Shown one piece after another: positions 45,476 to 64,000 of a DNA stretch of 64,000 bases. The position numbers and the translations under genes are program-made. Position 1 is the first letter of the stretch, and every line of letters begins with the position of its first letter. Source of the stretch: Candidatus Micrarchaeota archaeon (GTDB taxonomy: Archaea; Micrarchaeota; Micrarchaeia; Anstonellales; Bilamarchaeaceae); contig JBDRCX010000006.1 in NCBI GenBank assembly GCA_043821365.1, positions 480,001-544,000 on the forward strand. The letters run 5' to 3'. Under the pieces are notes generated by a model. That model was not told the origin of the DNA, made no database searches, and saw only the letters and a list, made by a program, of their open reading frames with translations.

Positions 45476-45477
45476 GT

Positions 45478-46358: not shown

Positions 46359-46913
46359 TTGGACGTTTATTTTGCTACAAGTAATAAGCACAAAGTTGAA
46401 GAAGTAACAAAGATTCTAAAGGAATTTAAGATTACGGTGAAGCATTTCCCGTTTAATCACCGTGAGATTCGTTCAGATTCTTTGGAAGAGATATCTCGGG
46501 TGGCAACTGCTGCTGCATATAAACAATGTCGTGAACCTGTGTTTGTTGAAGATACTGGTCTTTTCATCGAAGAATTAAACGGGTTTCCAGGTGCCTTTTC
46601 AGCATGGGCTTTAGAAAAAATAGGGTTGCAGGGCATATTAAAACTCATGGAAAACAAGACAAATCGCCATGCTTATTTTGAAACCTGTATTGGATTCAAA
46701 AGAGATGCAAGTCACATTTCTATATTCACAGGGAAGTGTACTGGGAGAATTTCAACAGGAAAGCGTGGTAGTGGTGGGTTTGGATATGATTCTATCTTCA
46801 TACCTGAAGGCGAGCATCAGACGTTCGCTGAAAGCATAACCTTAAAAAACAAGCTATCACATAGATATAAATCTCTTTTAGAATTCTCTAAACTTTTAAC
46901 TAGCAGAAGGTGA
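46359..46913 (+). CDS. rdgB: Non-canonical purine NTP pyrophosphatase (RdgB/HAM1)
   Basis: FATSNKHK, VEDTGL, GFGYDSIF, KLSHR; TTG start with GGTGA SD. Confidence 0.96.
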   Translation: MDVYFATSNKHKVEEVTKILKEFKITVKHFPFNHREIRSDSLEEISRVATAAAYKQCREPVFVEDTGLFIEELNGFPGAFSAWALEKIGLQGILKLMENKTNRHAYFETCIGFKRDASHISIFTGKCTGRISTGKRGSGGFGYDSIFIPEGEHQTFAESITLKNKLSHRYKSLLEFSKLLTSRR

Positions 46914-46921
46914 ATTCTTTT

Positions 46922-47003
46922 AAGGTGATTTTTTTATGACATTGAACGGCAATTCGTTCAATAATAAAATTTCCATATAGGAAAGAGGAGATGAAATTTT
47001 ATG
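46922..47003 (+). promoter_or_regulatory. Structured leader / uORF upstream of rps15, shared with rpo12
   Basis: ATTGAACG-gcaatt-CGTTCAAT; AAAATTTC...GAAATTTT encloses the SD; uORF 46936-46980 (MTLNGNSFNNKISI*). Confidence 0.6.
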
Positions 47004-47456
47004 GCAAGATTACATTCAAAGAAAAAAGGAAAATCAGGTACAAAGAGACCAAAGGGCAACACTGCCCCTAGCTGGACTACTCTGAAACCAGCTGAAATCA
47101 AAGAACACATCTTGAAAATGGCACGTGAAGGTGTTCCACCAGCTAAAATAGGTATAATTTTACGTGATCACTATTCTGTTGCAAACCTAAGAGCACAGTT
47201 GGGAATGACCTTGAAAGCATTTCTGAAAAAAGAAGATGCTCTTGGTGAATACCCAGAAGATCTTTTGAATTTGATCAAAAAAGCTGTAAGAATGGCAAAT
47301 CATATAAAATCCACAAAGAATGACACATCAAACAACGTTAAGCTTGTTCATGTGGAATCTAAAATTCAAAGATTGGCAAAATACTACTTATCAAAAGGAA
47401 TGCTACCGTCAGGTTGGAAATACAATCGTGAGACTGCAGCATTATTAGTAAAGTAA
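47001..47456 (+). CDS. rps15: 30S ribosomal protein S15 (uS15)
   Basis: MARLHSKKKGKSGTKRP; PEDLLNLIKKA; ESKIQRLAKYY. Confidence 0.97.
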   Translation: MARLHSKKKGKSGTKRPKGNTAPSWTTLKPAEIKEHILKMAREGVPPAKIGIILRDHYSVANLRAQLGMTLKAFLKKEDALGEYPEDLLNLIKKAVRMANHIKSTKNDTSNNVKLVHVESKIQRLAKYYLSKGMLPSGWKYNRETAALLVK

Positions 47457-47466
47457 CGGTGATTAA

Positions 47467-48057
47467 TTGGCTGGCAAAAAAGTTAAAATTGTTGATAAAT
47501 GGAAATCAAAGAAATGGTATTCTGTTAAAGCCCCCTCCTTATTTGAATCAAAGGAGATCTGCGAACTTGTAGCTGCAGATGAAGCAAAACTTATCAATAG
47601 GGTTGTCAAAGCAAGTTTGATGGAATTGGGTGTAAGCGGGTCTCAAATGGCAATGTTTACTGCATTGCGTTTTAGAATCAAAGAAGTCAATGGAAACGAT
47701 GCAAATACAACTTTGCTTGGCCATGAAATATCTCCTTCTTTTATAAGAACCTTTGCAAGAAGAGGAAGATCTCTTATTCATCAAGTTGTTGATGGAAAAA
47801 CCAAAGATAATGAGGAACTAAGACTGAAAATTATTGCAGTAACTGGTTCAAGAGTCAGTATGAATACAAAAAAGAATCTCAGAGCTCTTGTTGTTGAAGA
47901 AGCCAAAAGTGCCATTGTTGATAAGAATTTTGATGAAGTTATTCAAGATGTTATCTATGGCAGAGTCTCATCAAAAATATTCAGCAGATTAAAACAAATT
48001 ACAAAAATGAAACGTGTTGAAATTCGCAGATCAGAAAGAGGCGAAGAGTTCAAATGA
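47467..48057 (+). CDS. rps3ae: 30S ribosomal protein S3Ae (eS1)
   Basis: DKWKSKKWYSVKAP; RVEIRRSE; TTG start. Confidence 0.96.
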   Translation: MAGKKVKIVDKWKSKKWYSVKAPSLFESKEICELVAADEAKLINRVVKASLMELGVSGSQMAMFTALRFRIKEVNGNDANTTLLGHEISPSFIRTFARRGRSLIHQVVDGKTKDNEELRLKIIAVTGSRVSMNTKKNLRALVVEEAKSAIVDKNFDEVIQDVIYGRVSSKIFSRLKQITKMKRVEIRRSERGEEFK

Positions 48058-48099
48058 AGCGTTGCATATGTCAATCTAACGGCAAAGTTTTATCAAAGG

Positions 48100-48146
48100 C
48101 AAGAAATCAACGCTTTCTTGACTGTCTTGAAAGCATAGCTTTCAAG
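48100..48146. terminator. Two intergenic hairpins after rps3ae
   Basis: CAAGAAA-tcaacgc-TTTCTTG and CTTGAAAGC-ata-GCTTTCAAG. Confidence 0.4.
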
Positions 48147-48182
48147 CAAAAGATCATTAGATAATATTAGTGGGGTATTCCT

Positions 48183-48515
48183 ATGATGCCAGGTGGAATG
48201 GATCCGAAAAAAATGCAAGCTATGATGAAACAGATGGGTATTAAGAGTGAAGAAATCCCATCATCAAAAGTTGTAATTGAAACTTCTTCTGGTTCTATAG
48301 TGATAGAAGAGCCGCAGGTTGTCCAAGTAACTATGCAAGGACAAAAATCATTTCAAATAAGTGGAAATATACGTGTTGAAGAAAAAGCAAGCGGTGAAGA
48401 TATAAAGATGGTTATGGAACAGTCTAATTGTTCTGAAGAAGAGGCAAAACAAGCATTAGAAAAGTCAAATGGAGATATTGCAGAGGCAATTCTCTCTCTT
48501 TCTGGAGAAAAATAA
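48183..48515 (+). CDS. nac: Nascent polypeptide-associated complex protein
   Basis: MDPKKMQAMMKQMGI; QGQKSFQI; C-terminal UBA (GDIAEAIL). Confidence 0.96.
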   Translation: MMPGGMDPKKMQAMMKQMGIKSEEIPSSKVVIETSSGSIVIEEPQVVQVTMQGQKSFQISGNIRVEEKASGEDIKMVMEQSNCSEEEAKQALEKSNGDIAEAILSLSGEK

Positions 48516-48664
48516 TTAATCAGAATCATTTGTTACCTACGTAGCAGTTGTACTATATTTGTCTGCGTACATTGTAATAAACTCACTAATACGCCTGTTT
48601 TTGACTAAAGCAGAATCTTTAGGTATACACTAAGGAATAAAAATCTTCATTGGGTTAGTGGATT

Positions 48665-49240
48665 ATGGAGATTAGGCGCGAGGTCATGCTAATCATATTC
48701 CTGCTTCTCGTAATAATCGTACTTGTAAAGCTGATTGAATTTTTTCAAGTTAATATTGTTGAGGCAGATGCAAGCAAATTTGTAAGTGAAGATCTTGCTT
48801 CCAAATATCCAACTGCAGATATTGAAATTATGACAATTATTCCAAAAGAAGGTCCCTATGGCAAATATTTTGAAGTAAAAGCAAGAGTTACTCAAGATTT
48901 TGAATCTACTTGTCCTCTGCGTACTCATATATTTTATAATTACCCAACTCAAAACTTTGTCCCTCAACTTCCAGAAGTAATAACAAGTAATTGCGTAGTT
49001 TGTAATGTTGGTATTTGCACAATAGCATTTCCAGAAGAAGCAATTATTGCATCACATACATTTGCAGGCACTTCGGATATTAAATCATATATTCTTGCTA
49101 ATCCAAATGCCACACCACAGGTTAAAGAAAAACAAGAATCCTGGGAAGTAACCTGGAATTCACAAACATCCAGCTATTATTTTGTGATTGAGCTTCACAG
49201 AAATGGAACTATCCTTAGTATGGAGAAGATTGGCAAGTAA
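48665..49240 (+). CDS. Hypothetical membrane-anchored protein
   Basis: N-terminal TM; four Cys in the extracellular part. Confidence 0.6.
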   Translation: MEIRREVMLIIFLLLVIIVLVKLIEFFQVNIVEADASKFVSEDLASKYPTADIEIMTIIPKEGPYGKYFEVKARVTQDFESTCPLRTHIFYNYPTQNFVPQLPEVITSNCVVCNVGICTIAFPEEAIIASHTFAGTSDIKSYILANPNATPQVKEKQESWEVTWNSQTSSYYFVIELHRNGTILSMEKIGK

Positions 49241-50189
49241 TTGTTTTATCATCAATATCTATTTTTTTGTCTAAGAATTTTAGTATTATTTCTTTGTTTG
49301 TACTAAAGTGTTCTGTTATCCTACTTGTTTTGTATTTTGTTTTACCATCAGACAAAACAGCATAAATCAGAAGCTGGTCCGCAAGATGACAATCAACATC
49401 CTCATTTTCAGAATTTAGTATATCTAGAGCTTCTTTTGCAACTTCTTCTGCTCGTTTTCCTTTTTCACCAAGAACATATGCTCCTCTATATCCTTTCCAA
49501 GTAGTTACTGAATTCCCTGGTGAAAGTGCTGGGTTTTGCCTTATGAAAACCTTTTCAATCTCATTTTGTACAAATATTTTTTTCTCTCGAATTGCAATGG
49601 AGGATGGCAATTCCGATACTCTTAACATGGCAAAAATTTCATTACTTTGTTGCCAGGATTCACAACCAGCAAGTTTGGATGGTTTTATTTTTACTTCTAT
49701 TTCTCCACCGCCTCTTGGATAATATCCTGGTTTTACCATTTCTGATTCAACTATTGCACCGAATTTAGAAATTGCAGGTAGAAATACTTTTTCAAAATAA
49801 TCATATCCTGGTGATTTTATGACATGTGTTCCACCTATTATTCTTATTTCGCTTTCCTTGTTTGCATCAAGAAGAATTGGTATTATCGTCTGTGCAACAA
49901 GAGTTACTGAACCAGCAGTTCCAATGTCAAATTGATATTTTCCACCAACAATTTCTCCAGGATTGAATCTTATTTCGCTACTTTCAAGTTCTGCTCCTTC
50001 AAGTGTTCCGCGGCAGACACTTCGTACAGCACGTGCAGCAGTTAAATGTTGCATTTGTAATCCTGGCTTTGGTCGGTTTGCTCGTATATTAAAAATTCTC
50101 ACTGGTTTTTTTGTAATTGCTGAAAGTGTTAGAGAGGTTCGGATTACTTGACCGCCTCCCTCCCCAAAACTACCATCGATCTCAATCAT
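49215..50189 (-). CDS. rtcA: RNA 3'-terminal phosphate cyclase
   Basis: IDGSFGEGGGQVIR, RPKPGLQMQH, GYYPRGGG, HLADQL, catalytic His in TEHFSTN. Confidence 0.96.
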   Translation of the reverse strand: MIEIDGSFGEGGGQVIRTSLTLSAITKKPVRIFNIRANRPKPGLQMQHLTAARAVRSVCRGTLEGAELESSEIRFNPGEIVGGKYQFDIGTAGSVTLVAQTIIPILLDANKESEIRIIGGTHVIKSPGYDYFEKVFLPAISKFGAIVESEMVKPGYYPRGGGEIEVKIKPSKLAGCESWQQSNEIFAMLRVSELPSSIAIREKKIFVQNEIEKVFIRQNPALSPGNSVTTWKGYRGAYVLGEKGKRAEEVAKEALDILNSENEDVDCHLADQLLIYAVLSDGKTKYKTSRITEHFSTNKEIILKFLDKKIDIDDKTITCQSSPY

Positions 50190-50193
50190 AAAC

Positions 50194-50661
50194 TCACTTT
50201 ATCAAGTCTGTCTGTTCTGCATTATTAGACCTTATGATTTCTAAAGGAGCAATCTTTGTTAATGCGTTTTGCGATCCACCGCCACTATAAACTATTGTTT
50301 TTGTCATTACTGAAGTATCTATGAAAAAAATCGCAGCATATCCGAATGATGGAGTGCCTCCCATCGGATAACCTGTTTTTTGAAGTATCTCTTCAGCATT
50401 GGCAAATCTTAGTTTTTTTGTTTCAATTTTGAGAGCCAACTTTTTTAGATCAAGTTTTTTGTGTCCCGGAACAATGCAAACAATAAGTGAATTGTCTGTT
50501 TCATTAATTATGCATACATTTTTTACAAAATCTTCTGGAGTTGCATTTGCTGATGCAGCTGCTTCTTCTACACTGTGGCAGGAAGTCTGAAAAACAAGAT
50601 GTTCTGCAGTTATGTTGTTATTAGTAATATAATTAACTAATTTGGATTCGTATTCATTCAT
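50194..50661 (-). CDS. YbaK/EbsC family aminoacyl-tRNA editing protein
   Basis: HSVEEAA, FVKNV, GYPMGGTPSF, VYSGGG; likely start 50661. Confidence 0.88.
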   Translation of the reverse strand: MNEYESKLVNYITNNNITAEHLVFQTSCHSVEEAAASANATPEDFVKNVCIINETDNSLIVCIVPGHKKLDLKKLALKIETKKLRFANAEEILQKTGYPMGGTPSFGYAAIFFIDTSVMTKTIVYSGGGSQNALTKIAPLEIIRSNNAEQTDLIK

Positions 50662-50710
50662 TACATATTCAAGATGCCTTTTATTTATAATTCTAATTAA
50701 CAAAACCGCT

Positions 50711-50765
50711 GTCGCTGAAGGCAATTAAAAATTAGGCCAGCGCATCGCTGCGCTGGCAAGGCGAC
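50711..50765. repeat. GC-rich intergenic hairpin
   Basis: GCCAGCGCA-tcgc-TGCGCTGGC (50736-50757) inside an outer GTCGC/GCGAC pair. Confidence 0.5.
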
Positions 50766-50933
50766 CAGTTATCCTCCCATGCACTCAAAACGAGCGTGAG
50801 TACTTAAAAATTTTAGACCAACAATATATATAAATGTTATGGAATTTGTGTTCTTATGTTAATTTTCATGTTTTCTAGTTAAAATTGAACCGCAACCAAC
50901 CACTTTTTAACATTTTCTGATTAATTCTTTACC

Positions 50934-51524
50934 GTGACCAGAGACACTAAAGAACTTGTCAGGCGTGTTCTTGATCAAAGAGCTACAGCAATACGCGATT
51001 TTGCCAGTTCTGTTAGAGATGCTGTTTTAAAAGATAAGTTAACTGCTCCATTTAACATGCGAGCAGAAGGCCTAACTGCAATGTGGAATCTTACTCAAAT
51101 TCGCCGTGAAATGTCTGATGAAATTCATTCTTTGGCAATTCTATTCAAGGATAAGGAAGCTACTAAGGATGAAAAAACTACAGAAGATTGCCGCTTACGT
51201 ATTGCAAGAATCTCAATTGCAAGGTATTTTATTGATCTTGTTGAGAAGATGCAAAAAGCTTCTACAGAAAACGGAAGTCCTGCAGCCAATGCTATTTTTC
51301 AATCTGCAGTTAGTGCAATAAAGCATATCCTTGATGATAAATTTTTTACAAAAGATAAAGATCAGATTATTAATGATCATCTTGATGTTGAACCAGTTAT
51401 TGCTGCAGCATGTTCTGCATTTTCCATACCAACAAGTACTCTTTATGACGCAGTGGGAAGCCATGAAGGCAAGGTTGCTCAGGATATTGATAGAGAAATC
51501 GGCAGAATCAGAGCAGAAACATAA
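50934..51524 (+). CDS. Hypothetical helical protein, paralog A
   Basis: Shares a C-terminal motif with 51566..52078. Confidence 0.65.
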   Translation: MTRDTKELVRRVLDQRATAIRDFASSVRDAVLKDKLTAPFNMRAEGLTAMWNLTQIRREMSDEIHSLAILFKDKEATKDEKTTEDCRLRIARISIARYFIDLVEKMQKASTENGSPAANAIFQSAVSAIKHILDDKFFTKDKDQIINDHLDVEPVIAAACSAFSIPTSTLYDAVGSHEGKVAQDIDREIGRIRAET

Positions 51525-51565
51525 ATTTCAAAAGATTTTTATTCAACTAGGACGTTATCTTTTCT

Positions 51566-52078
51566 ATGCCAACTGATCCATCTGATATTCTAAATGCTCA
51601 TCAAAAGAAAAAAACAGATGCCATTGCATTTTTCAAAGAGCTTGCCCATATGAATTCTGGTCCAATCTCTCAAAATGTGATTAATATAGATAAAAATTCA
51701 AAATCACTTGCAGAAACAAATTTATTATTTGAAAAAAAATTGTCTGAATTTTCAAAATCAAATATGGATAGTCTTGCTATCTCTAGATTCTGTCTGGCAC
51801 TTTTTTTTATTGAACGTACTAATGAAATACATAATATTGTCTTAACTAAGAATGTGGGTGGGTTATACTCTTTATATACTTCTTTAAGAAACCAAGTTTG
51901 TGATTTATTAAATGAAAAGTATTATTCAGCTTCCAAAGATTATATTCTCTCTTTTTATCTTGATCTTGAACCTTTACTGTGTGCATCTTCTGACTTGTGC
52001 GAATTGCCTGTTCCTGAGATCACAACTATCATGGAAACTTACAAATCAAAAATTGCGGATAGACTTGAGAAACTCTGA
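51566..52078 (+). CDS. Hypothetical helical protein, paralog B
   Basis: Shares a C-terminal motif with 50934..51524. Confidence 0.65.
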   Translation: MPTDPSDILNAHQKKKTDAIAFFKELAHMNSGPISQNVINIDKNSKSLAETNLLFEKKLSEFSKSNMDSLAISRFCLALFFIERTNEIHNIVLTKNVGGLYSLYTSLRNQVCDLLNEKYYSASKDYILSFYLDLEPLLCASSDLCELPVPEITTIMETYKSKIADRLEKL

Positions 52079-52987
52079 TCATCTCATGTTTCTAATCCCA
52101 TTCCAACCAGGACTAAAATCTACTGGGTTTCCAATTTCTCTAGTGTGAAGCCCATTTCTTCCTATAACTCTCTCATAGAATTTCAATTCATGTGAATTAC
52201 TATCCATATAGAAAAATGGCGACCTCCCACTTCTAAAAGTAGAATAACCTGTGTTTATTCCATAATCCAAGCTTAACATTGCTTCAGGCATTAATCTTAC
52301 TTCAACCCCAAGTCTTTCATATTTCTTAACTAACATCCTTTGTGTTAATACGTCAATGTCGGTCATGTCTGTTTTTTTATCATAATATTTTGGTTGTATA
52401 AGTAATATTGGTCTACTACCATCATTCACTAAAAATAATCTTCTTCTAAATACAAAATCATCAGCACTGTCTTCTCTTGCAACTATCTGTTTTATCCATG
52501 GTAGTTCTATTGTGCCTACTACTCCGCCTATATGGAAAGTTGGTTGATGTGGTTCTTGGCAATTTGGATGTCCACGTACTAATCCACCATATAATGCAGT
52601 TTCAAAATCTCCAACTTCACCAACTAACAGATTGCCTATAGTGGCAGTTGTTTCTTGTCTCCATGCTACAAAAAGGGCTTCGCCTCTTTCTCTTCCCATC
52701 AAATTATGAAGTTCTCTACGGAACTCTTCTGAGAATTTGAATTCCTGAAATTTATGTGCTAAGTATGCAGAAAATGCATCATCAAGCACAGCTATTGCTT
52801 CTTGAAATGCCTCTTTTCTTCCTCTATAATCAATTCCAACATTTTTTGGGTCATTTAATTTTGTTAAATTTGCTCTTATTATACCAACGTCTGTAGTTAT
52901 CCTATCAACCACTACCTCTCTCCGAGAAAATTTATCTTGTGTATGTGAAAATTGCACTAATCTTTTTGGAGGTTGTCGTCTATCCAT
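52079..52987 (-). CDS. Stand-alone paralog of the giant protein's C-terminal domain
   Basis: FQEFKFSEEF, NCQ, TFHIGGVVGTIELPWIKQIV, RRRLFL, QPKY and SGRSPFFYMDSN are all mirrored in the giant ORF. Confidence 0.8.
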   Translation of the reverse strand: MDRRQPPKRLVQFSHTQDKFSRREVVVDRITTDVGIIRANLTKLNDPKNVGIDYRGRKEAFQEAIAVLDDAFSAYLAHKFQEFKFSEEFRRELHNLMGRERGEALFVAWRQETTATIGNLLVGEVGDFETALYGGLVRGHPNCQEPHQPTFHIGGVVGTIELPWIKQIVAREDSADDFVFRRRLFLVNDGSRPILLIQPKYYDKKTDMTDIDVLTQRMLVKKYERLGVEVRLMPEAMLSLDYGINTGYSTFRSGRSPFFYMDSNSHELKFYERVIGRNGLHTREIGNPVDFSPGWNGIRNMR

Positions 52988-53027
52988 ACTATTCTCTTGT
53001 TACGTAAAGTTTAATAATCTACCACAA

Positions 53028-53564
53028 TTAGCCTACTGCTGTCCTATTCCTTCCACCAGTTCCATACTGTCTTCTTCCGATACTTGCCCTTAGACCTAAA
53101 TCTGGTTTTTTGAGTACTCCATTCTGTCTTACTAAAAGAATTGCTTGTGCTGAAAACTCTCTATCACTAATCATCTTCAGTAGCTGTATAGTTGTTTTAT
53201 TAAGGGCAAAACCAGAACTTGTTACTTTTGATAGTAGTTCTAAACCATATTTTGTAAGTTCCTTTTTTGTTTCTTTATGTCCAACCATCTCAAGTGCTCT
53301 TGTCAATAATACCTGTCCACTAACTTCTACGAATTTCATCCAGTAATCTGTTGATGGAAATTTGTCAAACATCTCACTGATTTTACTAAGTTCTGAGGTT
53401 GAGGTTTCGCCTTTTACTACTGCCACAATTGTTTGGCCAATAATTGCAAGTTTTTTTACATTTTCATTATGATCTCTTGACAACACTTCAACAATTTTGT
53501 TTCCATCCACTTCTCCTGAGTACCATATTAAAGTGAAAAACATTGTTCTTGTATCATCATCCAT
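53028..53564 (-). CDS. Small helical hypothetical protein (candidate immunity protein or chaperone)
   Basis: Starts 9 nt after the giant ORF's stop; lies between the giant CT domain and its stand-alone copy. Confidence 0.55.
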   Translation of the reverse strand: MDDDTRTMFFTLIWYSGEVDGNKIVEVLSRDHNENVKKLAIIGQTIVAVVKGETSTSELSKISEMFDKFPSTDYWMKFVEVSGQVLLTRALEMVGHKETKKELTKYGLELLSKVTSSGFALNKTTIQLLKMISDREFSAQAILLVRQNGVLKKPDLGLRASIGRRQYGTGGRNRTAVG

Positions 53565-53572
53565 AAAACCAC

Positions 53573-56500
53573 CTAATCCTTAATCAGTTCCCCTGTGATG
53601 TCACGCCTTTCGTTCCAGCCTTTTTGAAATATGTCTGGCTGTCTGTATCCCTCACTTGTACCTGGTTCTCTATAATGCAATCCATGGCGTGCAAAGACTA
53701 TACCTTCTCTTCCTGCTCTAACTACATAACCATTACTATCCATATAATAATATGGCGATCTACCACTTGTGAATGTTCTATATCCTGCATTTGGACCAAT
53801 GTCATTTGCATATGCGTGATCAATGTCTCTTACTCCTATTCCCATCTCTTCATATCTTGTGCGGATGCTTGCCATTACTGCAGTATCTATTTCTGCCAAG
53901 CCTGGCATATCCTTTGCTCCATATTTTGGTTGTGCAACTAATATTGGATTGCCGTCGTCTCCTTGCATGAGGAATATTCTTCTTCTGTATATTATTTCCC
54001 CTGCTGGATTTTTGATCACAATCTGTTTTATCCATGGCAATTCTACTGTTCCAACTATTCCTGCAATGTGGAATGTCTGTTGTGATATATCTTGACAGGT
54101 GCGTTCTCCTCTAACTCGTCCGCCATAAAATCCATCTTCAAAACTTCCAGTTTCAAGTATAGTGTGGGTTGCATCTCCAACTGTTACTTGATCTGCAGTA
54201 TGATTCTGTCTCCAAGTTTCAAATATTCTGCTTCCTCTTTCTTCCCCAACTAAACTAATTAATTCTCCTCTAAATTCGTCGCTAAACTTAAATTCTTGGA
54301 ATCTTCCTTCTGCCATTGCCCTAATTGCTTGATCAAAAACAATAGCAGCCTCTCCGAAACCTTCTTGTGGTCCATAATAGCCAACCAAGTTTTGTGTTGA
54401 TCTTGGTGCAGCTTCCGTAAGATTACCACGATATTGTGTATAATCCATTATCAAATCAATATTTTCTAATATAAATGCAGCTGGAAGTTGGACATCAGAA
54501 GGTATGAACAATTTGCCAATTTCAGAACTAACTGTTTGTGTAAAAGCATCGATTGGAAGAACCCCACCATCGGGCCCAATGAGGTTTCTGCTTATCCTTG
54601 CAAGATCTGCGGGTGATACCTTTCCATCTAAGTATGCATTGTATATAAGGTCCATATAATCTATCTTCCCTCTTGTTCTACTACTTCCTAAAAATTCTGC
54701 TTTATCTGCTTTTGTTGCTCCATCTCTTGCAATATATTCCAATTCTGCTCCTACTAATCTTAACCATGGTTCTACTGTTGTGTTCCCACTTGAATTGAAG
54801 ATATTGTCCATTAAATCTGCAACTTGTCTGAAATTTGCATGACTTCTTAGTTCCTTTCTTATAGCATCGCTACTCAATGCACGCAATACTAAACTTCTTG
54901 GAACTGGTCCAGTTTCAGGTAGTAAATATGTTGCAAAAGGAAGCCTATTTGGTCTTACACTTAGTTGGTCTGCTCTATCTGCAGTTATATCACCAAGAAG
55001 TATTGTTTCTTGCCTTGTTTTTCTCCCAACCTTAACATCAACTCTTATAGCAAGTGCTTCACTAAGAACCCCAAAATCTAAATTGTCTAAATTGCTTCCA
55101 ATCAATTGCATATATGCTTCTCTTGATTCTGCAGTTGGAAGTCTACTAACATCATCAAATAGATATTCGAAAATATGTTTTACTACAGCTCCTCTTGCAT
55201 CCGGATCTGTTATCTGATCTAGTGGAATTCTATCGAGTAGTCTTCTGCTTGTTTCTGTTGCTTGCTCAAGCATTCTGAAACTATCAACATCAGTTGGCCT
55301 GAAATTATCAAGCAGTCCATTTCTAACTCCTGGTTTGACCTCATGTGAGAGCAGGGGTACTGGATCCACTCCAAGTAAATGAAGTTTTGCTGCAAATCCA
55401 AGAACATTACCAATTTGTCCTATAGTTATAAATCCTTCAACCTGCGCATAATGCAAATGTTCATCAAGTGCTGCAACTGTTCTTGAATATGCCTCAAGCA
55501 TCTGCACTCTTGTTTCTTCTGGTGCTGTTCTTCTGATTGTTTTTGCACCTGCCATGACAGCATCCCTCATCATCTCAGGACTGCTGGAAAGAGATTGGTC
55601 AAGTGTGTCTAAAATGTGTGTTTCTTTTGCACTATTAACTTCTCTACTTATTTCTCCTTCGTAATATGTGCGTAATTCTGCAGGTGTCATTCCATCGTCA
55701 GCTATTCTGACCAAGAGTATATTCTCTACGCCATCATATTCAAAATTAAACTGAACATTCCCATCTTCTCTAATTACTGCTTCATATGTTACTCTGCTTG
55801 GAAGATCACTTTCTTCCATCCCTAATATTGATCTGCTTGGTGGTTTTGTTACATCTGGTCTTTTTACTACGACTTCTCTTCCTGCATAAACATCATCTGC
55901 TGCTTGAGAAATTGGATTTCTTAATATTGTGGTTCTGTCTCTTCCATTTGTGAAATCAGTTGGCACATGTGAATCATCAGCAACACCAATCAAGTGGGGG
56001 CTATCTTCTGGTGCTCTGCTAGTATGGAGTCTTGCAGGGGCTGTTTTTCTAAGTGGATCTATTACAACAAATCCACTTCCTCTTCCATATGCCTCACTCA
56101 TGCTTGCATCTAAATTGGTAACATATCCTCCAGCTGCCCTAACTCCTTTTCCTCTGGAATGGCCAACATAAATATGATCAACACCAAGTGCTTCTCTCCA
56201 TTGAGCTGCAATCTCCTGGCTCATAATTGGTGCCCATCCATGCCTTCCTTCAACATATGCAGAAGAGTAATCTCCACTTTCCATAACTCGTATGTCTCCA
56301 AATACTGTTCCCCAATGGTTATCTGCAGTAGTAAATAATCTTTGGAAATGTGCATCCAACATTTCAGGACTTGTAATTAACTGCCCATCACTTTGCAATA
56401 CTGGTCCACCATGTGTGAAATAATTATTATCTATTATTACTGCTGCTCTTGACTGTTCAATGAAATGCATGAAACTTCCTTCTATTACTCTTCCTTGCTG

Positions 56501-59500
56501 ATCATAATTTTCATGTATGAAATTTTCCCAACTTCCATATCTTTCAATAATCGATTCAAATGTTTGGTCCACACCAACACGGCTCCACTGCTTCATGGCA
56601 CCCATTATGTCATCTGCATTGGCCTTCCCTTCAAATACGGCTCTAACCTCTTGATCGCTTGAACCTCTATAAAATTCTACAAATCTTCTAAACAATTCTT
56701 CATGATTGCCTCTCAATGCATGCACCCTAGTTCCTGTTTGCCCACCATCTGATTTCATCTGGCTTACTAATTCCACAACATCTACGCTTGTTGGTCCACG
56801 ATCAATATAATCTCCCATAAAAACAATCTGGCTTCCTTCTGGTAAATCTGGGTTTAGTCTATACCTCTTGGCAGGTGGAACATATCTTGGATCAGTTTTT
56901 GGCAATGTTCTTGGTATCCCTTCCATAGTGTCAATTAAGATTCCTTGTCTAAGGAATTGGTCAACAACACCATAAACATCTCCATGCACATCACCAATTG
57001 CTATTACCTGACGTGCATTTTGGATTACATCAACATAAGCACCTTGTTTCATGGTTGGTGGTGAACTTTCTATTGCTTCAAGGACTGTTCCATATCTATC
57101 TGCTATTGCAATTGCTTCATCTAAACTCCCAGTTCTAATTGCTTCTTGGTACGTTGCATCACTACCAAGTTGTTCAGCAAGCATTCTTTCGTTTGCAGTT
57201 CCTAATTTACTATCTTCAGCAATTAAATGAAGGCGGCGTCCTAATTTTGTACTTTCTGGTATCCTTTTTCCAAGTTGTTGTTCTTGTACTGCTAATTCTA
57301 CTTCTCTTTCTTGTTGTCTAACTCTATACCTATATGCATGGTCTGGTTCACCAGTTCTTTTTTGTACTGGTGCTAATCTCGGTGCATCATCAACTATTGC
57401 AAGTGACATTCCGTCTGGTGATCTTGTTATTGCCTGGCGCCTTATTTCAAATGTTCTACCCTCGGTTAATACAAAGTCTTGAAATGCTTCAAGCATATCA
57501 GCTCCACGTGGTTCTGGTAATCTCCTAAGTTTAATTACAAGATCCTCTACTTTCCGTAATTGTGGATTTTTTCTTATTACTTCAGTAATGTCCCTAAGTT
57601 TACCAAGCCCTAATCTTGTTAATGTATCATCATTACCTATTGCCATTGCAGCAATAATCGCATCTGCACTATCATAATTTTCTGAACCCCACAACATCCT
57701 CAAGCGTCCATTTGATATTGATGCCATTGCATCTGCAAAGTTTGCGTTTTCAATTGGTACTGCTCCTTGTTTTTGTACACTCATTTTTACTCCTGCACTA
57801 TGTAATTGTTCATCGATAACTCTTGCCATCACAGTTGCATCAGCAGGTGTTCCGCCTTCAATCACATATTTCATTGTTCCTAAACGTCTTACTGTGACAC
57901 CGTGTTCTGTTGCATATCTTGCAACTGCAGCTTCTACAGTACTAACAAGGTAATTTGCACCATCATGGCCAAGGAATGTATTGAATCCACGCAAACCAAA
58001 TGCATTTCTTTCTACTTCTGCATATCCTTTTCCTGTTATCTCTAAGTATGGTGTTTCAACTGTTCTTTCTACTCCTGGAAGTCTTCCTCCTATATCAACA
58101 TAAGCTTGATTATCATCTATTTGGAGCCTTACTTCAAATGCAGTTCCGCTAACTGTTTCTCCATCTCCAACCTGCCCTATTGATTCTGATAGTTTCCATC
58201 CAACTCCTGTTCTTACCCCTAATCTTTCTCTAAGTGATGGTGCAAAACTCAAAGAACCATCTTCTTCTGCTCTAGTTATTAGCCCTTCTAAAAACCCTAT
58301 TCTGCTTTCAGAACGCTGCAACATGGCATCGCTTCCATCAGCATGTACTGCAACTGCTCTTCCGTCTTCTGCTCTTCCAACTGTTACTGGTCTGCTAATA
58401 TCATATGATGCTTCAATTAATCTAAGTGGGTCTGTCATTAATGAAAGTGAATATCTTAATCTTCCAGAACCATCTGATGCCGTGCTAATTCTTTGGAATT
58501 CAGCATCAGTAACTGCTCTCATTTCTTGTCCTAGTCTTGTTCTAACGTCTTCTCCTTTTCCTTTTGGTACTATTATGATTCCTACTGCTTCATCCCCACC
58601 TCCACTTGGTGGGCGTATTATGTGTGCAGTTTGTTCTTGACTATCCCCAATGATCCTTCTTACTGCTCCTTGTATTATGTCTTGATAAACTCCAAGAGCT
58701 TGATCCCCAACTTCTTCTCCAAACATTTTATTGATCTGACTTAGTGATTTTTTATCTGGTCGTATTACGATGACATCCATTTCTTGTCCTTGCATTGCGT
58801 CCGACAGAATCACATCTTCGATTGATCTAACCATTCTTCCAATTGAAACTTCTTCGCCAGCAACAGCTTCATGTCCAATCAACCATTCGGGTTGCCCTGT
58901 TCGTACTAACTCACCATCAATCAACTCAACTCCTGCACGTCTGAGAACATGTCCAACTACATCATCAGTTTTGAAAAGTTCGCGACTAGGTCGCAATCTT
59001 ACAAATTCACCTGCTTCAATTGATTCTGGTTCAACTACTGGTGCCCTAGTTTCTGGTTCAACTACTTTTGTTTCTGGTCCTCTTGTTCTACGTCCTTTGC
59101 TAATAGGAGTAGGTTCAATACCCTCTGCTCCAACAGCAATTGGCATCGCTGTTTCAGTAACTCTTGCTTGTGCACCTACTTTTCTTGGGTGCCCAACCAT
59201 AAGTTTTATCACAATTGTTGGGCTCCCTTCTATATCTTGAGATACTGCAAAACATCTTGCTTTTGCTTCTGGTGTATCTGGTATCTCACCACGTATGGCT
59301 GCTTGATCAACAAGATCTTCAAATTTTATTTCTGCTACTGGTCTTCCTGTTCTTTTTGATGCTTCTAAAACAATTTCTGATGTTTCAAAGCCAGCCATTC
59401 TTCGTAATGCTTTCAAATTCTTTCCTGGTTTTGTTGGGCTGAGTTCTCCTCTTTGTATCCCACTGCCCATTGCTATTTTTGCTTCTTCAAATAATGTGAA

Positions 59501-62500
59501 TTCACCTTCATATTTTCTTACCAAATGAGCAGGTCTTCCTGAAACTAGTGAGTAAGTATCTTCAGATGTTGTTAATCTTCTTACTAATGAATGTATTGCA
59601 GTTCTTCCTGCTTGTCCTTCTTGAGTTGCACCAAACAATCCAATTCTTAGTTCTCCTCTTGGTGTTCTGCTTGCAGTTGCAAATGCAACTATTCTTCCAC
59701 CCTCTCTTGCTACAAACCAAATTGGTGTTACTTCTGTAAATAATTTTTCAGGATTACTATAATGTAAGTCTGCAGCACCATAAGCTTCATCATAAAGTCT
59801 TTTTATCTCAGGCCAAGCTGCTGCTCGTTCTTGTTCAGTTATTTCAGACCATGGTCTTTTACCATCAACTTCAATATCAGTAATTGCTCTTTTTCTTTCA
59901 ACAAATTCCTGGCTTTCATCATGCCTAACTGGTTCAAGTGTTCGTAATTTTGCAGCCAATTTTTCAGTTCCTTGCTCAATTCTTGTTGCAAATTCCTCTA
60001 GTTGTTTTGCTCTTGCTGTTTCTCCTGCCTCGCGTAAAACCTTTGCTTCACCTCTGAATCTACTTACATTTGCTTTTCTTCTTGTTATAGTTTCTCTTAG
60101 ATTCTCTACTGTTACTGGTCTTTCTAGTAATCGTTGTTCTTCAGACATTGCCCTTATTACTATAGCTTCTGGTTGCCTTGCTATTTCTGGTATTTTCATT
60201 GCTGCATCAAGACCAAATTCCAACTGTCTTGCTCTGCTTTTTCGATTAGCTAAATATTCAGGATTTAATGCAAGTTCCATTGCATGCCTCTGAACTTTTT
60301 CAGGTTGCCCTCTAAGTGCTTCTGCCACAAATGCTCTTTTTTGTTCTGGGGGCAATGAAGCAAATTCTGGATTATTAAGAATTCTCTCTGCACTACTTAC
60401 AATTCTCAGTGCAGTATCAACATGTTCAGAAGAATAAGTTTTTTGTTCTTCTCCTCTCCCTAATCTATATGTTGTTCCATCTTCACCGGGTTCTATGAAT
60501 CTACTTTTTAATTGTGCATGCAAAACTTGTTCTGCTGCTCTTTCACGACGTTCCCGCATTTCTGTTGTTCTATCTACAGGGGCATCTTGTTCTGCATCGT
60601 GGGGATGTCCTCCTGGTATCTCAGCTTCTGGAGGATTAAGGAAATATACTTCGGCTTCTGCCAAAAATTTCTCAGTTGCTGCAGCACCTAGTGGTCTAAA
60701 TTCAGTTCTTCCGCCAACTTTTCTTGTTGGTATTCTATCCATGAATACCAATCCTTCTTCTGGTGTAAGACTTCTTCCTAATCGCAATTCCATCTGGCCA
60801 TACAAAGTTTTTTGTGTCTCACCAAGTTGGCCGAATCTTTTTCCATGTTGGGCTCTTAGTGCGGTTGTCTCTGCAAGGCTCATTGTATGAACGGTTTCTC
60901 CAGTCAGGCCAGTCATCACTCCTCTGAAAATTTTTGCTCCTCTTGTGTCTTGGGATGTTCCAGCAACTCTCCATGCTCTTGCAGTTCTTGTTGGTGCAAC
61001 ATGCGCTCCAACTGGTGCTGTTGCTTGTACTACACCAAGTACACCAGTTGTAAAGAATTCTAATCCACCTATATCTCCATGTATCCATGCTTTTCCAGAT
61101 TCATAGGCTCCATAACCTGCCATTCCAAGGCCGCCTGCCATTAGCCCCCCACCAAGGACGGTGATTCCTCTCCCACCAGTTCCCATCATACTACTAAACA
61201 TTGTCACTCTGCCAACTGCAAGAGATTCATTTGCAATTCCACTTAAACTACCAAGTGCTGCACCACCAAAACCCAAAACAACTCCACCTACTCCAAGTAC
61301 TTGTTCTGCTGTACCCATCTGCGAAAATCCACCTGATCTTCGGCTATTTTCTGCTAGATCATGAAGTGCCTTTGTTCCAAATCCAACACCAACAACTGCT
61401 CCAAAACCAGTTGCAGTAAGTCCTAGTGCAAGAGTAAGTTCAACTCCTGCCTGTATCCCTCTTGCAGTACTTTCAGAACTCTGGCCTTCTTTTAAAAGGC
61501 GGCCATAGTCTGTATCATATTGTCCTGCAAAATCTGATGTTTCTGCATACAATCCTTGAATGTATTCATCAGTAGCTGGTTTTCCACCTTGTAATCTATT
61601 CTGCAAAACTCCATTTATAACTTCTAAATCATGATCTGCATAAGTAGCTACAACATCATACATTTGTTTTCTTTCACTATATGACCAAATTGTTGTAAGT
61701 CCAAGATGAACTCCGAAATAATCGCCAAGCAATTGGCTTATACCTTTTATGTCTTTTGTCCCTGTTGCATGCGCAAGAACAACTTTGTGTTCTTCTGGTG
61801 TGAGGCGTACCTGGGTCCATCCATCATCTTCGTCCCAGGCTATTCCCATTTTTGCAAATGTTGCAGTTGTGTATAAGTCAGCTAATTTTATTGGTTCGCG
61901 ATGTGCTGCAAGAGCAAACCTGTCTCCTTCAACATGTTTAAATCCAACAGAATATGTTTGTAGCGAATCTAGATATCCATGCATGGCAGCGTATAATGCA
62001 TGTGGAATGTCATCATAATCAGCACCGGCACTAATTTTAGCATCATCATAAACTCCGTCTCGGTCTCTTATCTTTACCTCTATTGCCGGTAGACTGACCT
62101 GCCCCCCGCTTAATATTTTGCGTGTGATTCCTTCAGGATCAGATGCAGCTGCTCTTCCAATTTGGAGTAAGTCTGCTGCTCTCCATCTTAGATTCATGTT
62201 AAAAGGGCTGTAACCATGGGTTCTTACGTACTGGTCAACATTATCAAATAGCATTATTGAATCTTCCAAACAACTCATGGCAAGTTGAGCACCAGCATTG
62301 AATTGATCCACTCGTGTACTAATTCTACTAAACTCAAGATCAGCTGTTAATTGTGCATGCAATCCGGGTCTTATCTGATCATGTTCTTGAAGATAAGCCA
62401 ACCCCTTTCTCATTGGTGTGCCATCTTCTACCATTTCTTCATAAACTGCCTGGCCTCCTTTTTCTATTCTTCTTTGATTATATATCCTACCATTAAATCC

Positions 62501-64000
62501 ATTTGTGGCTTGATATATCCCCCATATCAAATCCCTACTATATTCTGGTTTGAATGTATCTGCATATCCTTCTGTTAACATTACATCAATTGATGTTCCA
62601 AGCACTCTTGAGGTTTGTACTAAATCTTCTCTGACTTCTTTTGCATTTCCTGCAAGGGCTCTTGTTATTCCTGTGGCAAGTACAGCATCCAAAACTTGCT
62701 GGTGTGCTCCTATTGCTGCATAATCTATTTTTTCATCACCTTGTGGTATCTCTTGTGGTTTTCCAAATTCGCCTAAGTTGTGTTCAAGTCTTGTAAGTTC
62801 AACTTCTCGTTGTCTTAAGTATTCCATCTGACTAAGTCTTTGCATTCCTACCTGGTAGACTGAAGCAAAACTAGCAAAACGTTGATTGGTTTCATCGATT
62901 GTTCCGTCCAGTTCTCCTGAACCTACTCCTCCACGGCTTAGTTCTGCAATATCACCATCAATTAGATGAACAACCTCAGCAGTCTGAAGTCTTAAGTGAT
63001 GAGCAGTATCAGATAATTCACTTGCGTGATGGACTATTATTTCTCCTATTTCTCCCTCTTTCATCTCACCGTGTGTTCTTTCGATTTTATCTTCCATACT
63101 AGCTAATCTTCCTGCATTCACTTCCAAACCAGTTTTTTGATACATTCTTCTAATCATTAACGGTTGGTTTGCTGTAAATTGATCTAGTTGTATTCTAACG
63201 TATTCAAGTTGTTGATCTATTGATTCAGGTGTACTTGTTCCGTTCACCATTCTATCAATTTCATCATCAACTTTTCCTGCAGCTGCATCAAGCTCTGCTG
63301 CTAAAGTTGCCGCACCACTTGCAATAATTTGCCGTGATTCTTGTGTTCTCTCTTTTGTTTCTGGTTCCATTCCCTTTCCTTCGGTGGTGTCTGCATATTG
63401 TTGCATTAATGCTTCTGCCTGTCTTTCAAATGATCCTCTTTCCAACAATAACATCTGTGATTGCTGTGCAAACTCAACTCTTTTTGGGAATGTTGCAAGT
63501 CTTAGTTCAACTTCCCTAAAGTTTCCTGTGGCCCTGGTCATATCAATGCTATAAACTTCTTCCATAAGGCCACGGTAATCAAATCCCACAACTACTGGTT
63601 CACCATCATTGCCAGTTTTTATCTCAGTTCTTAATACCTCTCCATCTCTTTGGCTGTCATCAGCCATATCAAATAACATTGCATGTTGCTGGTGAATGTC
63701 TACTTTTCTCTGATCTAATTGAATTCCAAAAACCGCACTTTTCAATGTTTTCTGAGCGTGTCCAAATCTTTCTCTTCTTGCATATCTTTTCGCAAGTTCA
63801 AGTTCTTGCATTCTTGCCTGTGTATCAAGTAAAGGAGTGCCTGCTTCTATTGTTGCACCAGCATGTTCTACAGTTGCTGCTAAGGTTATCGCACCCTCTT
63901 CTCTCCCGCTTCCATGTTGCTGGTCAAGTTCTCTAAGTCTTGCTTGTTCTGCTTCTATGCTTTTTACAAAACGTGCAACAGTATGCTGTATCTGTCTTTC
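53573..64000 (-). CDS. Giant multidomain protein (>3475 aa, N-terminus outside the window): hydrophobic Gly-rich segment, GNAT-like, GGDEF-like x2, metallophosphoesterase, duplicated C-terminal domain
   Basis: The frame stays open from the track's Met at 63811 to position 64000 (ERQIQHTVARF...TQAR-MQELEL). Motifs: INKMFGEEVGDQAL/GGDEA; GDVHG/GDYIDRG/GNHE/THGG/GHS. Confidence 0.85.
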   Translation of the reverse strand, partial: ERQIQHTVARFVKSIEAEQARLRELDQQHGSGREEGAITLAATVEHAGATIEAGTPLLDTQARMQELELAKRYARRERFGHAQKTLKSAVFGIQLDQRKVDIHQQHAMLFDMADDSQRDGEVLRTEIKTGNDGEPVVVGFDYRGLMEEVYSIDMTRATGNFREVELRLATFPKRVEFAQQSQMLLLERGSFERQAEALMQQYADTTEGKGMEPETKERTQESRQIIASGAATLAAELDAAAGKVDDEIDRMVNGTSTPESIDQQLEYVRIQLDQFTANQPLMIRRMYQKTGLEVNAGRLASMEDKIERTHGEMKEGEIGEIIVHHASELSDTAHHLRLQTAEVVHLIDGDIAELSRGGVGSGELDGTIDETNQRFASFASVYQVGMQRLSQMEYLRQREVELTRLEHNLGEFGKPQEIPQGDEKIDYAAIGAHQQVLDAVLATGITRALAGNAKEVREDLVQTSRVLGTSIDVMLTEGYADTFKPEYSRDLIWGIYQATNGFNGRIYNQRRIEKGGQAVYEEMVEDGTPMRKGLAYLQEHDQIRPGLHAQLTADLEFSRISTRVDQFNAGAQLAMSCLEDSIMLFDNVDQYVRTHGYSPFNMNLRWRAADLLQIGRAAASDPEGITRKILSGGQVSLPAIEVKIRDRDGVYDDAKISAGADYDDIPHALYAAMHGYLDSLQTYSVGFKHVEGDRFALAAHREPIKLADLYTTATFAKMGIAWDEDDGWTQVRLTPEEHKVVLAHATGTKDIKGISQLLGDYFGVHLGLTTIWSYSERKQMYDVVATYADHDLEVINGVLQNRLQGGKPATDEYIQGLYAETSDFAGQYDTDYGRLLKEGQSSESTARGIQAGVELTLALGLTATGFGAVVGVGFGTKALHDLAENSRRSGGFSQMGTAEQVLGVGGVVLGFGGAALGSLSGIANESLAVGRVTMFSSMMGTGGRGITVLGGGLMAGGLGMAGYGAYESGKAWIHGDIGGLEFFTTGVLGVVQATAPVGAHVAPTRTARAWRVAGTSQDTRGAKIFRGVMTGLTGETVHTMSLAETTALRAQHGKRFGQLGETQKTLYGQMELRLGRSLTPEEGLVFMDRIPTRKVGGRTEFRPLGAAATEKFLAEAEVYFLNPPEAEIPGGHPHDAEQDAPVDRTTEMRERRERAAEQVLHAQLKSRFIEPGEDGTTYRLGRGEEQKTYSSEHVDTALRIVSSAERILNNPEFASLPPEQKRAFVAEALRGQPEKVQRHAMELALNPEYLANRKSRARQLEFGLDAAMKIPEIARQPEAIVIRAMSEEQRLLERPVTVENLRETITRRKANVSRFRGEAKVLREAGETARAKQLEEFATRIEQGTEKLAAKLRTLEPVRHDESQEFVERKRAITDIEVDGKRPWSEITEQERAAAWPEIKRLYDEAYGAADLHYSNPEKLFTEVTPIWFVAREGGRIVAFATASRTPRGELRIGLFGATQEGQAGRTAIHSLVRRLTTSEDTYSLVSGRPAHLVRKYEGEFTLFEEAKIAMGSGIQRGELSPTKPGKNLKALRRMAGFETSEIVLEASKRTGRPVAEIKFEDLVDQAAIRGEIPDTPEAKARCFAVSQDIEGSPTIVIKLMVGHPRKVGAQARVTETAMPIAVGAEGIEPTPISKGRRTRGPETKVVEPETRAPVVEPESIEAGEFVRLRPSRELFKTDDVVGHVLRRAGVELIDGELVRTGQPEWLIGHEAVAGEEVSIGRMVRSIEDVILSDAMQGQEMDVIVIRPDKKSLSQINKMFGEEVGDQALGVYQDIIQGAVRRIIGDSQEQTAHIIRPPSGGGDEAVGIIIVPKGKGEDVRTRLGQEMRAVTDAEFQRISTASDGSGRLRYSLSLMTDPLRLIEASYDISRPVTVGRAEDGRAVAVHADGSDAMLQRSESRIGFLEGLITRAEEDGSLSFAPSLRERLGVRTGVGWKLSESIGQVGDGETVSGTAFEVRLQIDDNQAYVDIGGRLPGVERTVETPYLEITGKGYAEVERNAFGLRGFNTFLGHDGANYLVSTVEAAVARYATEHGVTVRRLGTMKYVIEGGTPADATVMARVIDEQLHSAGVKMSVQKQGAVPIENANFADAMASISNGRLRMLWGSENYDSADAIIAAMAIGNDDTLTRLGLGKLRDITEVIRKNPQLRKVEDLVIKLRRLPEPRGADMLEAFQDFVLTEGRTFEIRRQAITRSPDGMSLAIVDDAPRLAPVQKRTGEPDHAYRYRVRQQEREVELAVQEQQLGKRIPESTKLGRRLHLIAEDSKLGTANERMLAEQLGSDATYQEAIRTGSLDEAIAIADRYGTVLEAIESSPPTMKQGAYVDVIQNARQVIAIGDVHGDVYGVVDQFLRQGILIDTMEGIPRTLPKTDPRYVPPAKRYRLNPDLPEGSQIVFMGDYIDRGPTSVDVVELVSQMKSDGGQTGTRVHALRGNHEELFRRFVEFYRGSSDQEVRAVFEGKANADDIMGAMKQWSRVGVDQTFESIIERYGSWENFIHENYDQQGRVIEGSFMHFIEQSRAAVIIDNNYFTHGGPVLQSDGQLITSPEMLDAHFQRLFTTADNHWGTVFGDIRVMESGDYSSAYVEGRHGWAPIMSQEIAAQWREALGVDHIYVGHSRGKGVRAAGGYVTNLDASMSEAYGRGSGFVVIDPLRKTAPARLHTSRAPEDSPHLIGVADDSHVPTDFTNGRDRTTILRNPISQAADDVYAGREVVVKRPDVTKPPSRSILGMEESDLPSRVTYEAVIREDGNVQFNFEYDGVENILLVRIADDGMTPAELRTYYEGEISREVNSAKETHILDTLDQSLSSSPEMMRDAVMAGAKTIRRTAPEETRVQMLEAYSRTVAALDEHLHYAQVEGFITIGQIGNVLGFAAKLHLLGVDPVPLLSHEVKPGVRNGLLDNFRPTDVDSFRMLEQATETSRRLLDRIPLDQITDPDARGAVVKHIFEYLFDDVSRLPTAESREAYMQLIGSNLDNLDFGVLSEALAIRVDVKVGRKTRQETILLGDITADRADQLSVRPNRLPFATYLLPETGPVPRSLVLRALSSDAIRKELRSHANFRQVADLMDNIFNSSGNTTVEPWLRLVGAELEYIARDGATKADKAEFLGSSRTRGKIDYMDLIYNAYLDGKVSPADLARISRNLIGPDGGVLPIDAFTQTVSSEIGKLFIPSDVQLPAAFILENIDLIMDYTQYRGNLTEAAPRSTQNLVGYYGPQEGFGEAAIVFDQAIRAMAEGRFQEFKFSDEFRGELISLVGEERGSRIFETWRQNHTADQVTVGDATHTILETGSFEDGFYGGRVRGERTCQDISQQTFHIAGIVGTVELPWIKQIVIKNPAGEIIYRRRIFLMQGDDGNPILVAQPKYGAKDMPGLAEIDTAVMASIRTRYEEMGIGVRDIDHAYANDIGPNAGYRTFTSGRSPYYYMDSNGYVVRAGREGIVFARHGLHYREPGTSEGYRQPDIFQKGWNERRDITGELIKD

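Follow-up and report, generated by a model that had tools for sequence, protein, structure and literature searches.

Several described systems each share something with a locus in which an enzyme-like domain ends a giant protein, adjoins a small gene and recurs as a gene of its own. The GNAT toxins TacT, AtaT and ItaT are canonical acetyl-coenzyme A (acetyl-CoA) enzymes of about 170 amino acids (aa) whose DNA-binding antitoxin is encoded upstream. HlyC and ApxC are small GNAT-like acyltransferases that lack the canonical CoA motif and are encoded beside a giant protein, HlyC acylating lysines of its giant substrate. MARTX toxins (Satchell) and the polyvalent proteins of mobile elements (Iyer et al., 2017) are giant chains of interchangeable enzyme modules set between constant regions. 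In polymorphic toxins, the toxin domain is replaced from standalone cassettes while the remaining architecture is kept, and GNAT or acetyltransferase toxins go unmentioned in the survey that defined them (Zhang et al., 2012; PMC3482391). Here we analyse a locus from a Candidatus Micrarchaeota archaeon, within a stretch of 64,000 nucleotides (nt) that we call the window (assembly GCA_043821365.1, contig JBDRCX010000006.1, positions 480,001 to 544,000). The C-terminal domain of a giant protein, hereafter the end domain, is followed there by a 178-aa partner gene and is then repeated as a free-standing gene of 302 aa, a layout that a sequence-only reading had likened to a toxin, its immunity gene and an orphan toxin. 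That analogy fits the layout only. On balance, we favour as the explanation of the whole a conserved operon end-module, made up of a GNAT-fold domain, its 1:1 partner and an old stand-alone duplicate, and not a toxin array.

The repeated end domain

Aligned by BLASTP with the last 599 aa of the giant, as the sequence-only reading had proposed, the 302-aa protein shares 124 of 281 positions (44% identity, 58% positives, E 4e-66), which excludes chance and bears out an estimate of about 40% made by eye; all of the motifs then quoted are present. The repeated unit is the giant's last ~270 aa. Homology begins near residue 30–38 of the free protein, and the first ~30 residues (MDRRQPPKR...) are therefore a private leader, basic as had been supposed; a relative with 73% identity (P0005) conserves its start.

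An alignment of 28 family members, comprising giant end domains and free copies, holds 20 invariant positions, of which nine are polar: E92, E124, C143, Q198, Y223, T250, R255, Y260 and D262 in the numbering of the free copy (P0001), which retains all 20. The invariant Cys is the sole Cys in 13 of 14 giant end-domains, and a core signature of E, CQ and GR(S/A)PxxYxD is retained in distant homologues. Where the sequence-only reading had listed Cys, His, Glu and Asp as invariant, Cys, Glu and Asp hold across the 28 members and Gln, Tyr, Thr and Arg join them, but the His of 'FHI' gives way to V, L or P in several. With nine invariant polar residues, a lone Cys among them, the domain does look like an uncharacterised enzyme, as had been suggested. 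A Cys–His protease was considered and rejected, the His not being invariant and the fold being unlike that of papain or caspase.

The AlphaFold2 model built on the 28-sequence alignment is confident (predicted local distance difference test, pLDDT, 93.5; predicted template modelling score 0.91) and comprises five N-terminal helices followed by an alpha/beta core, in the order beta1-alpha1-alpha2-beta2-beta3-beta4-alpha3-beta5, and then a C-terminal sheet. Its top Foldseek matches in the PDB are all GNATs (E ~2e-3, probability 0.99–1.0), and the top 50 of a VIA search over 48,161 chains are exclusively GNAT-fold proteins, nearly all of them acetyltransferases (Z 5.4–7.3). A second look by VIA placed NatD at Z 8.1, with a root-mean-square deviation of 4.3 over 149 aligned residues, and the alignments to GNAT-fold proteins span 105–161 residues. 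The structural check proposed beforehand has thereby returned a GNAT-like model. Profile searches gave neither a Pfam match at E <= 1 nor a PADLOC match for the free copy, the partner or the giant's last 599 aa, and the family profile drew from the PDB sequences a chance match only (E 2). On the model, the end domain is an undescribed, divergent GNAT-fold domain with a helical subdomain and an acyltransferase-like core. Its invariant polar residues fall in beta1, the alpha1–alpha2 loop, beta4 and the loop after beta5, from where they would line the walls of the usual GNAT substrate cleft, and an active site centred on Cys and Glu is probable.

A constant end on shuffled giants

Giants that carry the end domain are 3,500–7,250 aa long. 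When our giant was compared with 17 full-length relatives, its residues 3800–4455 aligned at the C-terminal end of the 17, so that the last 600–650 residues are the shared part, and from one giant to another the interior modules (GNAT-like, palm and PPP) are missing, duplicated or differently ordered. Judged from their sequences, a constant end with a shuffled interior is, among the giants compared, the reverse of the polymorphic-toxin layout. The polymorphic-toxin logic of the sequence-only reading is therefore not upheld: the last ~650 aa are constant and the interior is variable, and the free copies form an intact, full-length lineage. The search that it recommended for alternative C-termini on homologous giants turned up the same end domain or none, and no alternative end domain common to several giants was seen among those retrieved through either the end domain or the PPP module. 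Pfam detected no trafficking or pre-toxin domain (RHS, PT-TG, PT-HINT, filamentous haemagglutinin) in 3412 residues of the giant, a scan that left out ~1,000 N-terminal residues lying outside the window.

The partner gene

A homologue of the partner gene lies 8–20 nt 3′ of every giant ending in this domain (17 of 17 loci). Across a sample of 61 genomes, domain and partner are confined to the same 12, all of one genus, with 17 giants and 17 partners, and the 49 genomes that lack the domain yielded no orphan partner gene. Of the proposed toxin–immunity–orphan layout, the strict companion gene stands, and the rest is not supported, given the constant C-terminus, the monophyly of the free copies and the lack of orphan partners in those 49 genomes.

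No polar residue is invariant in the partner family, whose members are 19–36% identical, as against 33–55% for the end domains. Eight helices of the partner model form an ARM/HEAT-like alpha-solenoid (pLDDT 87.5), and its basic tail is disordered. Its structural neighbours are generic helical repeats only (designed repeats, ARM/HEAT, 14-3-3), at Z scores normal for helical models; a chain of a contact-dependent inhibition (CDI) complex, 5t87_A, is among them at Z 7.7, which is not meaningful alone, and no DNA-binding fold appears among the structural matches. Searched against 5.8 billion proteins, the partner profile found six members, the window's own included. The partner is a fast-evolving, non-enzymatic helical-repeat protein, and our reading, which draws on models, is that it would be dedicated to binding the end domain of the giant, whether as inhibitor, chaperone or adaptor.

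The free-standing copy

Of the 12 carrier genomes, 6 have free copies, which lie directly 3′ of the partner gene in two and are set apart from it by other genes in four, the intervening gene being on the opposite strand in three cases and a same-strand RtcA gene in one. No free copy has a partner-family gene of its own in the neighbourhoods of the 61-genome sample. In a maximum-likelihood tree of 47 sequences, in which two short 'free' rows are giant fragments on short contigs, the 13 true free copies form one clade (support 100/99) whose members are 41–75% identical. With the distant homologues as outgroup, this clade nests within the giant end-domains as sister of the G000/G025 giants, the clade that holds the giant of our own genome. 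A single clade nested in this way implies one old duplication of a giant's end, inherited intact. The conserved start, together with a TATA-like box, makes independent expression of the free copy plausible, as had been proposed from the sequence; TTATTAAA, taken as the free copy's own TATA box, is weak evidence because the genome is AT-rich.

Wider family and amino acid composition

A search of 1.84 billion representatives with the end-domain profile returned 61 proteins, the strongest 34 of which are Micrarchaeota-type giants, fragments of them and free copies. Weaker matches that keep the motifs (E 1e-21 to 1e-4) lie at the C-termini of unrelated proteins of 750–2,800 aa; one comes from another archaeon and one from Omnitrophota, and the others include a Gram-negative bacterial protein with DUF4116 repeats and a kinase-like protein in which a PT-TG match falls below threshold (E 8.5e-4, 19.7 bits vs a cutoff of 23.5). 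At the three contigs of distant homologues that were inspected, no partner-like gene lies downstream. Going by this distribution, the end domain seems to be a rare, effector-type terminal domain that large proteins carry in host-associated microbes. No description of the family was found in the literature on Micrarchaeota giants, DPANN polyvalent proteins and Bilamarchaeum, a scope to which the 2019 mBio survey of archaeal polymorphic toxins does not belong. In a 1,383-aa bacterial protein (P0051, L027 4001–8152), a kinase-like domain, a sub-threshold PT-TG match and a distant copy of the end domain occur together, and the gene adjoins those of a caspase-family peptidase and an AAA ATPase.

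The composition of the giants is unusual. Lys accounts for 3.6% and Arg for 8.2% of our own (proteome medians 8.4% and 3.8%), whose frame contains 6 Cys. Many related giants are near Lys-free, the lowest having 0.10% Lys (5 Lys in 5,122 residues), with Arg at 9–13%. Lys makes up 0–0.9% of the residues in 9 of 14 giant end-domains, 3–6% in free copies and 6–14% in partners, and the free copies carry up to 8 Cys. Giant, partner and free copy are therefore under different constraints, and the pattern suggests that the giant faces a Lys-directed hazard, arising from its own chemistry or from host tagging, unlike the partner and, largely, the free copy. Relatives of our giant that are both Lys-poor and very Cys-poor include P0013, P0024, P0027, P0032, P0036 and P0037.

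Locus and genome setting

The giant, 178-aa and 302-aa open reading frames (ORFs) are co-directional, all on the minus strand of the ORF listing (Table 1). The giant's reading frame has 4461 open codons in the genome and stops at 53573. Between its stop and the ATG of the partner are 8 nt (53565–53572) with GGTGG inside, which suggests translational coupling of the two genes.

Table 1. Features of the end-module locus, in coordinates of the window
Feature	Position	Strand	Remark
Giant mosaic ORF	53573..64000	-	Runs past the window edge; only Pfam match is Metallophos
Helical pre-terminal region, ~360 aa	54461..55563	-	Part of the ~650-aa block common to the compared giants
Giant's C-terminal domain, last 295 aa: predicted helical subdomain and GNAT-like core	53576..54460	-	
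Invariant Cys codon of the giant's end domain	54095-54097	-	
Partner gene (P0002), 178 aa: predicted alpha-solenoid and disordered basic tail	53028..53564	-	
Possible archaeal TATA box, TTATTAAA, for a leaderless transcript	53010..53017	-	-30 to -23 from the free-copy ATG, in the 40-nt spacer
Free-standing paralogue (P0001), 302 aa: ~30-aa basic leader, predicted helical subdomain and GNAT-like core	52079..52987	-	
Cys143 codon, sole Cys of the free copy (P0001)	52559-52561	-	

The genome, of 1.2 Mb and ~36% guanine plus cytosine (GC), is that of a DPANN archaeon (Micrarchaeota, Bilamarchaeum group) and not of a haloarchaeon, so that Haloferax, named earlier as a test host, is not relevant. 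The window also encodes S3Ae, S15, archaeal LonB, Elp3 and RtcA, and the named relatives of the locus proteins are Micrarchaeota, including Ca. Bilamarchaeum. Corresponding giants in several species are flanked by genes for RtcA, a conserved membrane protein and S3Ae, and a mobile island was rejected as a reading given this synteny beside RtcA and S3Ae. End-domain copies in our genome number these two only, and a different contig has one separate match, to the palm region inside the giant. GC stands at 38.5–41.8% in the giant ORF (54001–64000), as against 34–36% in flanking genes (44001–52000), probably because of the Arg-for-Lys composition and not through foreign origin, considering the conserved synteny.

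Other small genes accompany these loci. Two paralogous small ORFs with no Pfam match, at 50934–51524 and 51566–52078 on the plus strand, are convergent with the free copy; four homologues stand in tandem ~2 kb from another giant (G023:C10, L019), one further homologue occurs in L016, and the pair may represent a further accessory family of giant loci. The ORF at 51566–52078, which abuts the free copy, was tried as its partner and rejected, since it belongs to another helical family and is absent beside other free copies. Two more families of ~180–210-aa ORFs, mostly on the opposite strand, recur beside the free copy or partner in other genomes (L014 3288–3923, L004 2384–3004, L021 5958–6536, L009 2866–3477, L016 5565–6107 and L006 358–936); tblastn found neither family in our own genome. 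At one locus (L015, G007:C16, 2–4775), the orthologous giant is frameshifted within the end domain, with two overlapping frames at 4197–4474, and the partner and free copy are intact despite the broken giant, with RtcA between them. At the syntenic locus of Ca. Bilamarchaeum dharawalense (L026, CABMJJ010000011.1), the giant is called as two abutting ORFs of >2,699 aa and 3,193 aa, and four small minus-strand ORFs come after it, in place of partner and free copy.

Weighing the explanations

The architecture and its evolution, as read here, are quite likely right. The Bilamarchaeum-group Micrarchaeota (DPANN) would share a conserved chromosomal operon, of which the locus is the 3′ end and in which a giant mosaic multi-enzyme protein would close with a constant ~650-aa block whose last element is the predicted GNAT-fold domain; the translationally coupled alpha-solenoid protein would be the dedicated 1:1 partner of that domain, and a single old duplication in one sub-lineage would have produced the stand-alone gene, with every invariant residue kept. 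The acyl-transfer chemistry of the end domain, which we put forward tentatively and with some doubt, draws on the modelled fold. The domain may be an acyl- or aminoacyl-transfer-type enzyme whose cleft would be lined by the lone Cys of the alpha1–alpha2 loop, a Glu of beta1, a Gln of beta4 and the Arg/Tyr/Asp loop that replaces alpha4, and its donor may be other than canonically bound acetyl-CoA. The solenoid partner might bind the giant's copy as holder, mask or adaptor, and the free paralogue might supply the same chemistry in trans under a different constraint; being less depleted of Lys and Cys than the giant's domain, it probably has a different place or target. Taken further, the end domain could be an enzyme of Cys-dependent acyl transfer whose targets are amines (lysines) of host proteins, once the giant effector has been delivered from its DPANN symbiont, the giants having purged their own lysines to escape self-modification or the host's Lys-directed tagging, the Lys-normal partner being the producer's safeguard and the free paralogue a home-acting version of the enzyme. 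This fuller scenario is a long shot.

Several observations weigh against the end-module explanation or narrow it. The 17 giants were retrieved via the end domain, so that its constancy was measured on giants found by that very block. Among giants retrieved instead through the PPP module, the end domain is present in 5 of 13 and missing from 8; the tails of the latter match interior segments of end-domain giants or nothing in the set, and several of these end-less giants are therefore probably truncated. The complete syntenic giant of Ca. B. dharawalense truly lacks the end domain, and the partner and the free copy are missing there too, so that the module is gained or lost as a unit. As for the fold, the structural Z scores are middling, and values below 8 may, by the tool's own note, reflect just a common arrangement; a shared fold is therefore claimed, and not family membership. 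The canonical CoA pyrophosphate loop (Q/R-x-x-G-x-G/A, motif A) is missing between beta4 and alpha3, Gly occurring in at most 8 of the 28 sequences at every one of the corresponding columns (model 173–180), and a conserved loop, GYxTFxSGRSPxxYxDSN, takes the place of helix alpha4, so that the domain could be GNAT-like in fold yet serve for binding and not for catalysis. Co-folding of end domain and partner gave a median ipSAE (an interface score derived from predicted aligned errors) of 0.49, against 0.15 for the best of three controls, which is weak support: the mark applied is passed by 58 of 80 solved complexes and 2 of 110 mismatched pairs, but a pass at ipSAE <= 0.60 was seen in 7 of the 80 complexes only and in both of the passing mismatches, and a pass in this range is wrong more often than not if the guess was not already likely. 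The co-folding runs, made with our own alignments, have at least 74% of contacts in common and a partner pLDDT of at least 77. Finally, a small gene downstream of a C-terminal enzyme domain does resemble a toxin–immunity pair.

On another explanation, the locus would be a true toxin–immunity system, with the end domain as a warhead sent into a host or competitor, the solenoid as its immunity protein in the producer and the free copy as a second toxin, expressed independently and served by the same immunity. The strict 1:1 occurrence of the small downstream gene and its faster evolution relative to the end domain would both be expected; the co-folding result lends it the same weak support; a partner of normal Lys content next to a giant domain that is near Lys-free in most relatives fits a part that stays behind and a part that is exported; and the distant homologues terminate unrelated large proteins, one of them with a sub-threshold PT-TG match. 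We nevertheless hold it unlikely, since the end domain of the compared giants is constant and not variable, the free copy lacks its own partner gene, is just 44% identical to the giant's domain and belongs to a single old clade, orphan partner genes were not found in the 49 genomes without the domain, the distant homologues at three inspected contigs have no small downstream partner gene, and neither a trafficking or pre-toxin Pfam domain in the scanned part of the giant nor a PADLOC match was found.

The missing CoA loop and replaced alpha4 speak instead for a non-catalytic assembly module, a GNAT-like dimerisation or docking unit whose free copy would heterodimerise with the giant's end and, with the solenoid, cap, anchor or oligomerise the giant. 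Many GNATs dimerise, non-enzymatic proteins, ornithine decarboxylase antizyme among them, share the acyl-CoA N-acyltransferase fold, and a constant block in an otherwise shuffled protein is what would be expected of a module for assembly or handling. Yet packing alone hardly accounts for nine polar residues that never change, one of them the single Cys of a domain otherwise free of Cys; the heterodimer cannot be essential, since half of the carrier genomes have no free copy; and other genes stand between free copy and operon in four of six genomes. We consider this explanation, too, to be improbable, though worth keeping in view. That the free copy is functionless and decaying, left over from a second giant gene or a partial duplication, is very hard to credit: it does lie at the edge of the operon, at a distance and with neighbours that vary between genomes, but it is an intact ORF with a conserved start and all 20 invariant positions, and its 13 members, 41–75% identical, make up one clade of deep divergence. 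The conserved end-module accordingly keeps our preference as the account of the locus.

Significance

How DPANN archaea manipulate their hosts is largely obscure, and their giant proteins are the main candidates. The end domain defines a new family of ~60 detectable members, without a Pfam entry and with a predicted GNAT-like fold that lacks the CoA loop, which marks the constant end of a whole class of mosaic, Lys-poor giants. A dedicated partner accompanies it, joined in some lineages by a soluble paralogue. The free copy of 300 aa and the partner of 178 aa are small enough to express and so offer an experimental handle on otherwise intractable proteins. The present reading also corrects a tempting misannotation of the locus as a polymorphic toxin cassette.

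Comparison with known systems

Within the GNAT fold, the nearest structures are those of NatD/Naa40 (4u9v, 4u9w), which share with the modelled end domain the same core and an N-terminal helical extension that wraps it, and the end domain's conserved residues, at the alpha1–alpha2 loop, in beta4 and after beta5, would occupy GNAT substrate-binding positions. The end domain differs in matching no Pfam GNAT profile and no PDB sequence, in lacking the CoA loop, in having a conserved loop for alpha4 and an invariant Cys, and in being fused to the end of a giant. The GNAT toxin–antitoxin systems (TacT, AtaT, ItaT) likewise pair a GNAT-fold protein with a small partner gene, but the end domain has no CoA motif, forms part of a giant and has as its partner an alpha-solenoid encoded downstream. 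HlyC/ApxC could be a model for a free copy that acts on the giant or together with it; our giant is poor in Lys, whereas the giant substrate of HlyC is acylated on Lys, and the HlyC family gave no Pfam match and is not among the structural matches listed.

Polymorphic toxins and CDI systems resemble the locus in their large multidomain protein, enzyme-like C-terminus, adjoining small gene and extra copy of the end domain nearby. Here, however, the end is constant and the interior varies, the opposite of the definition in PMC3482391, and the standalone gene is of the same family, full length and monophyletic, without an immunity-like gene. With MARTX toxins and polyvalent proteins, our giant has in common the shuffled modules between constant regions; it differs from them in that RTX repeats and CPD were not found in it, and in being archaeal, chromosomal and syntenic beside ribosomal-protein and RtcA genes, with a constant GNAT-like module that has its own partner gene.

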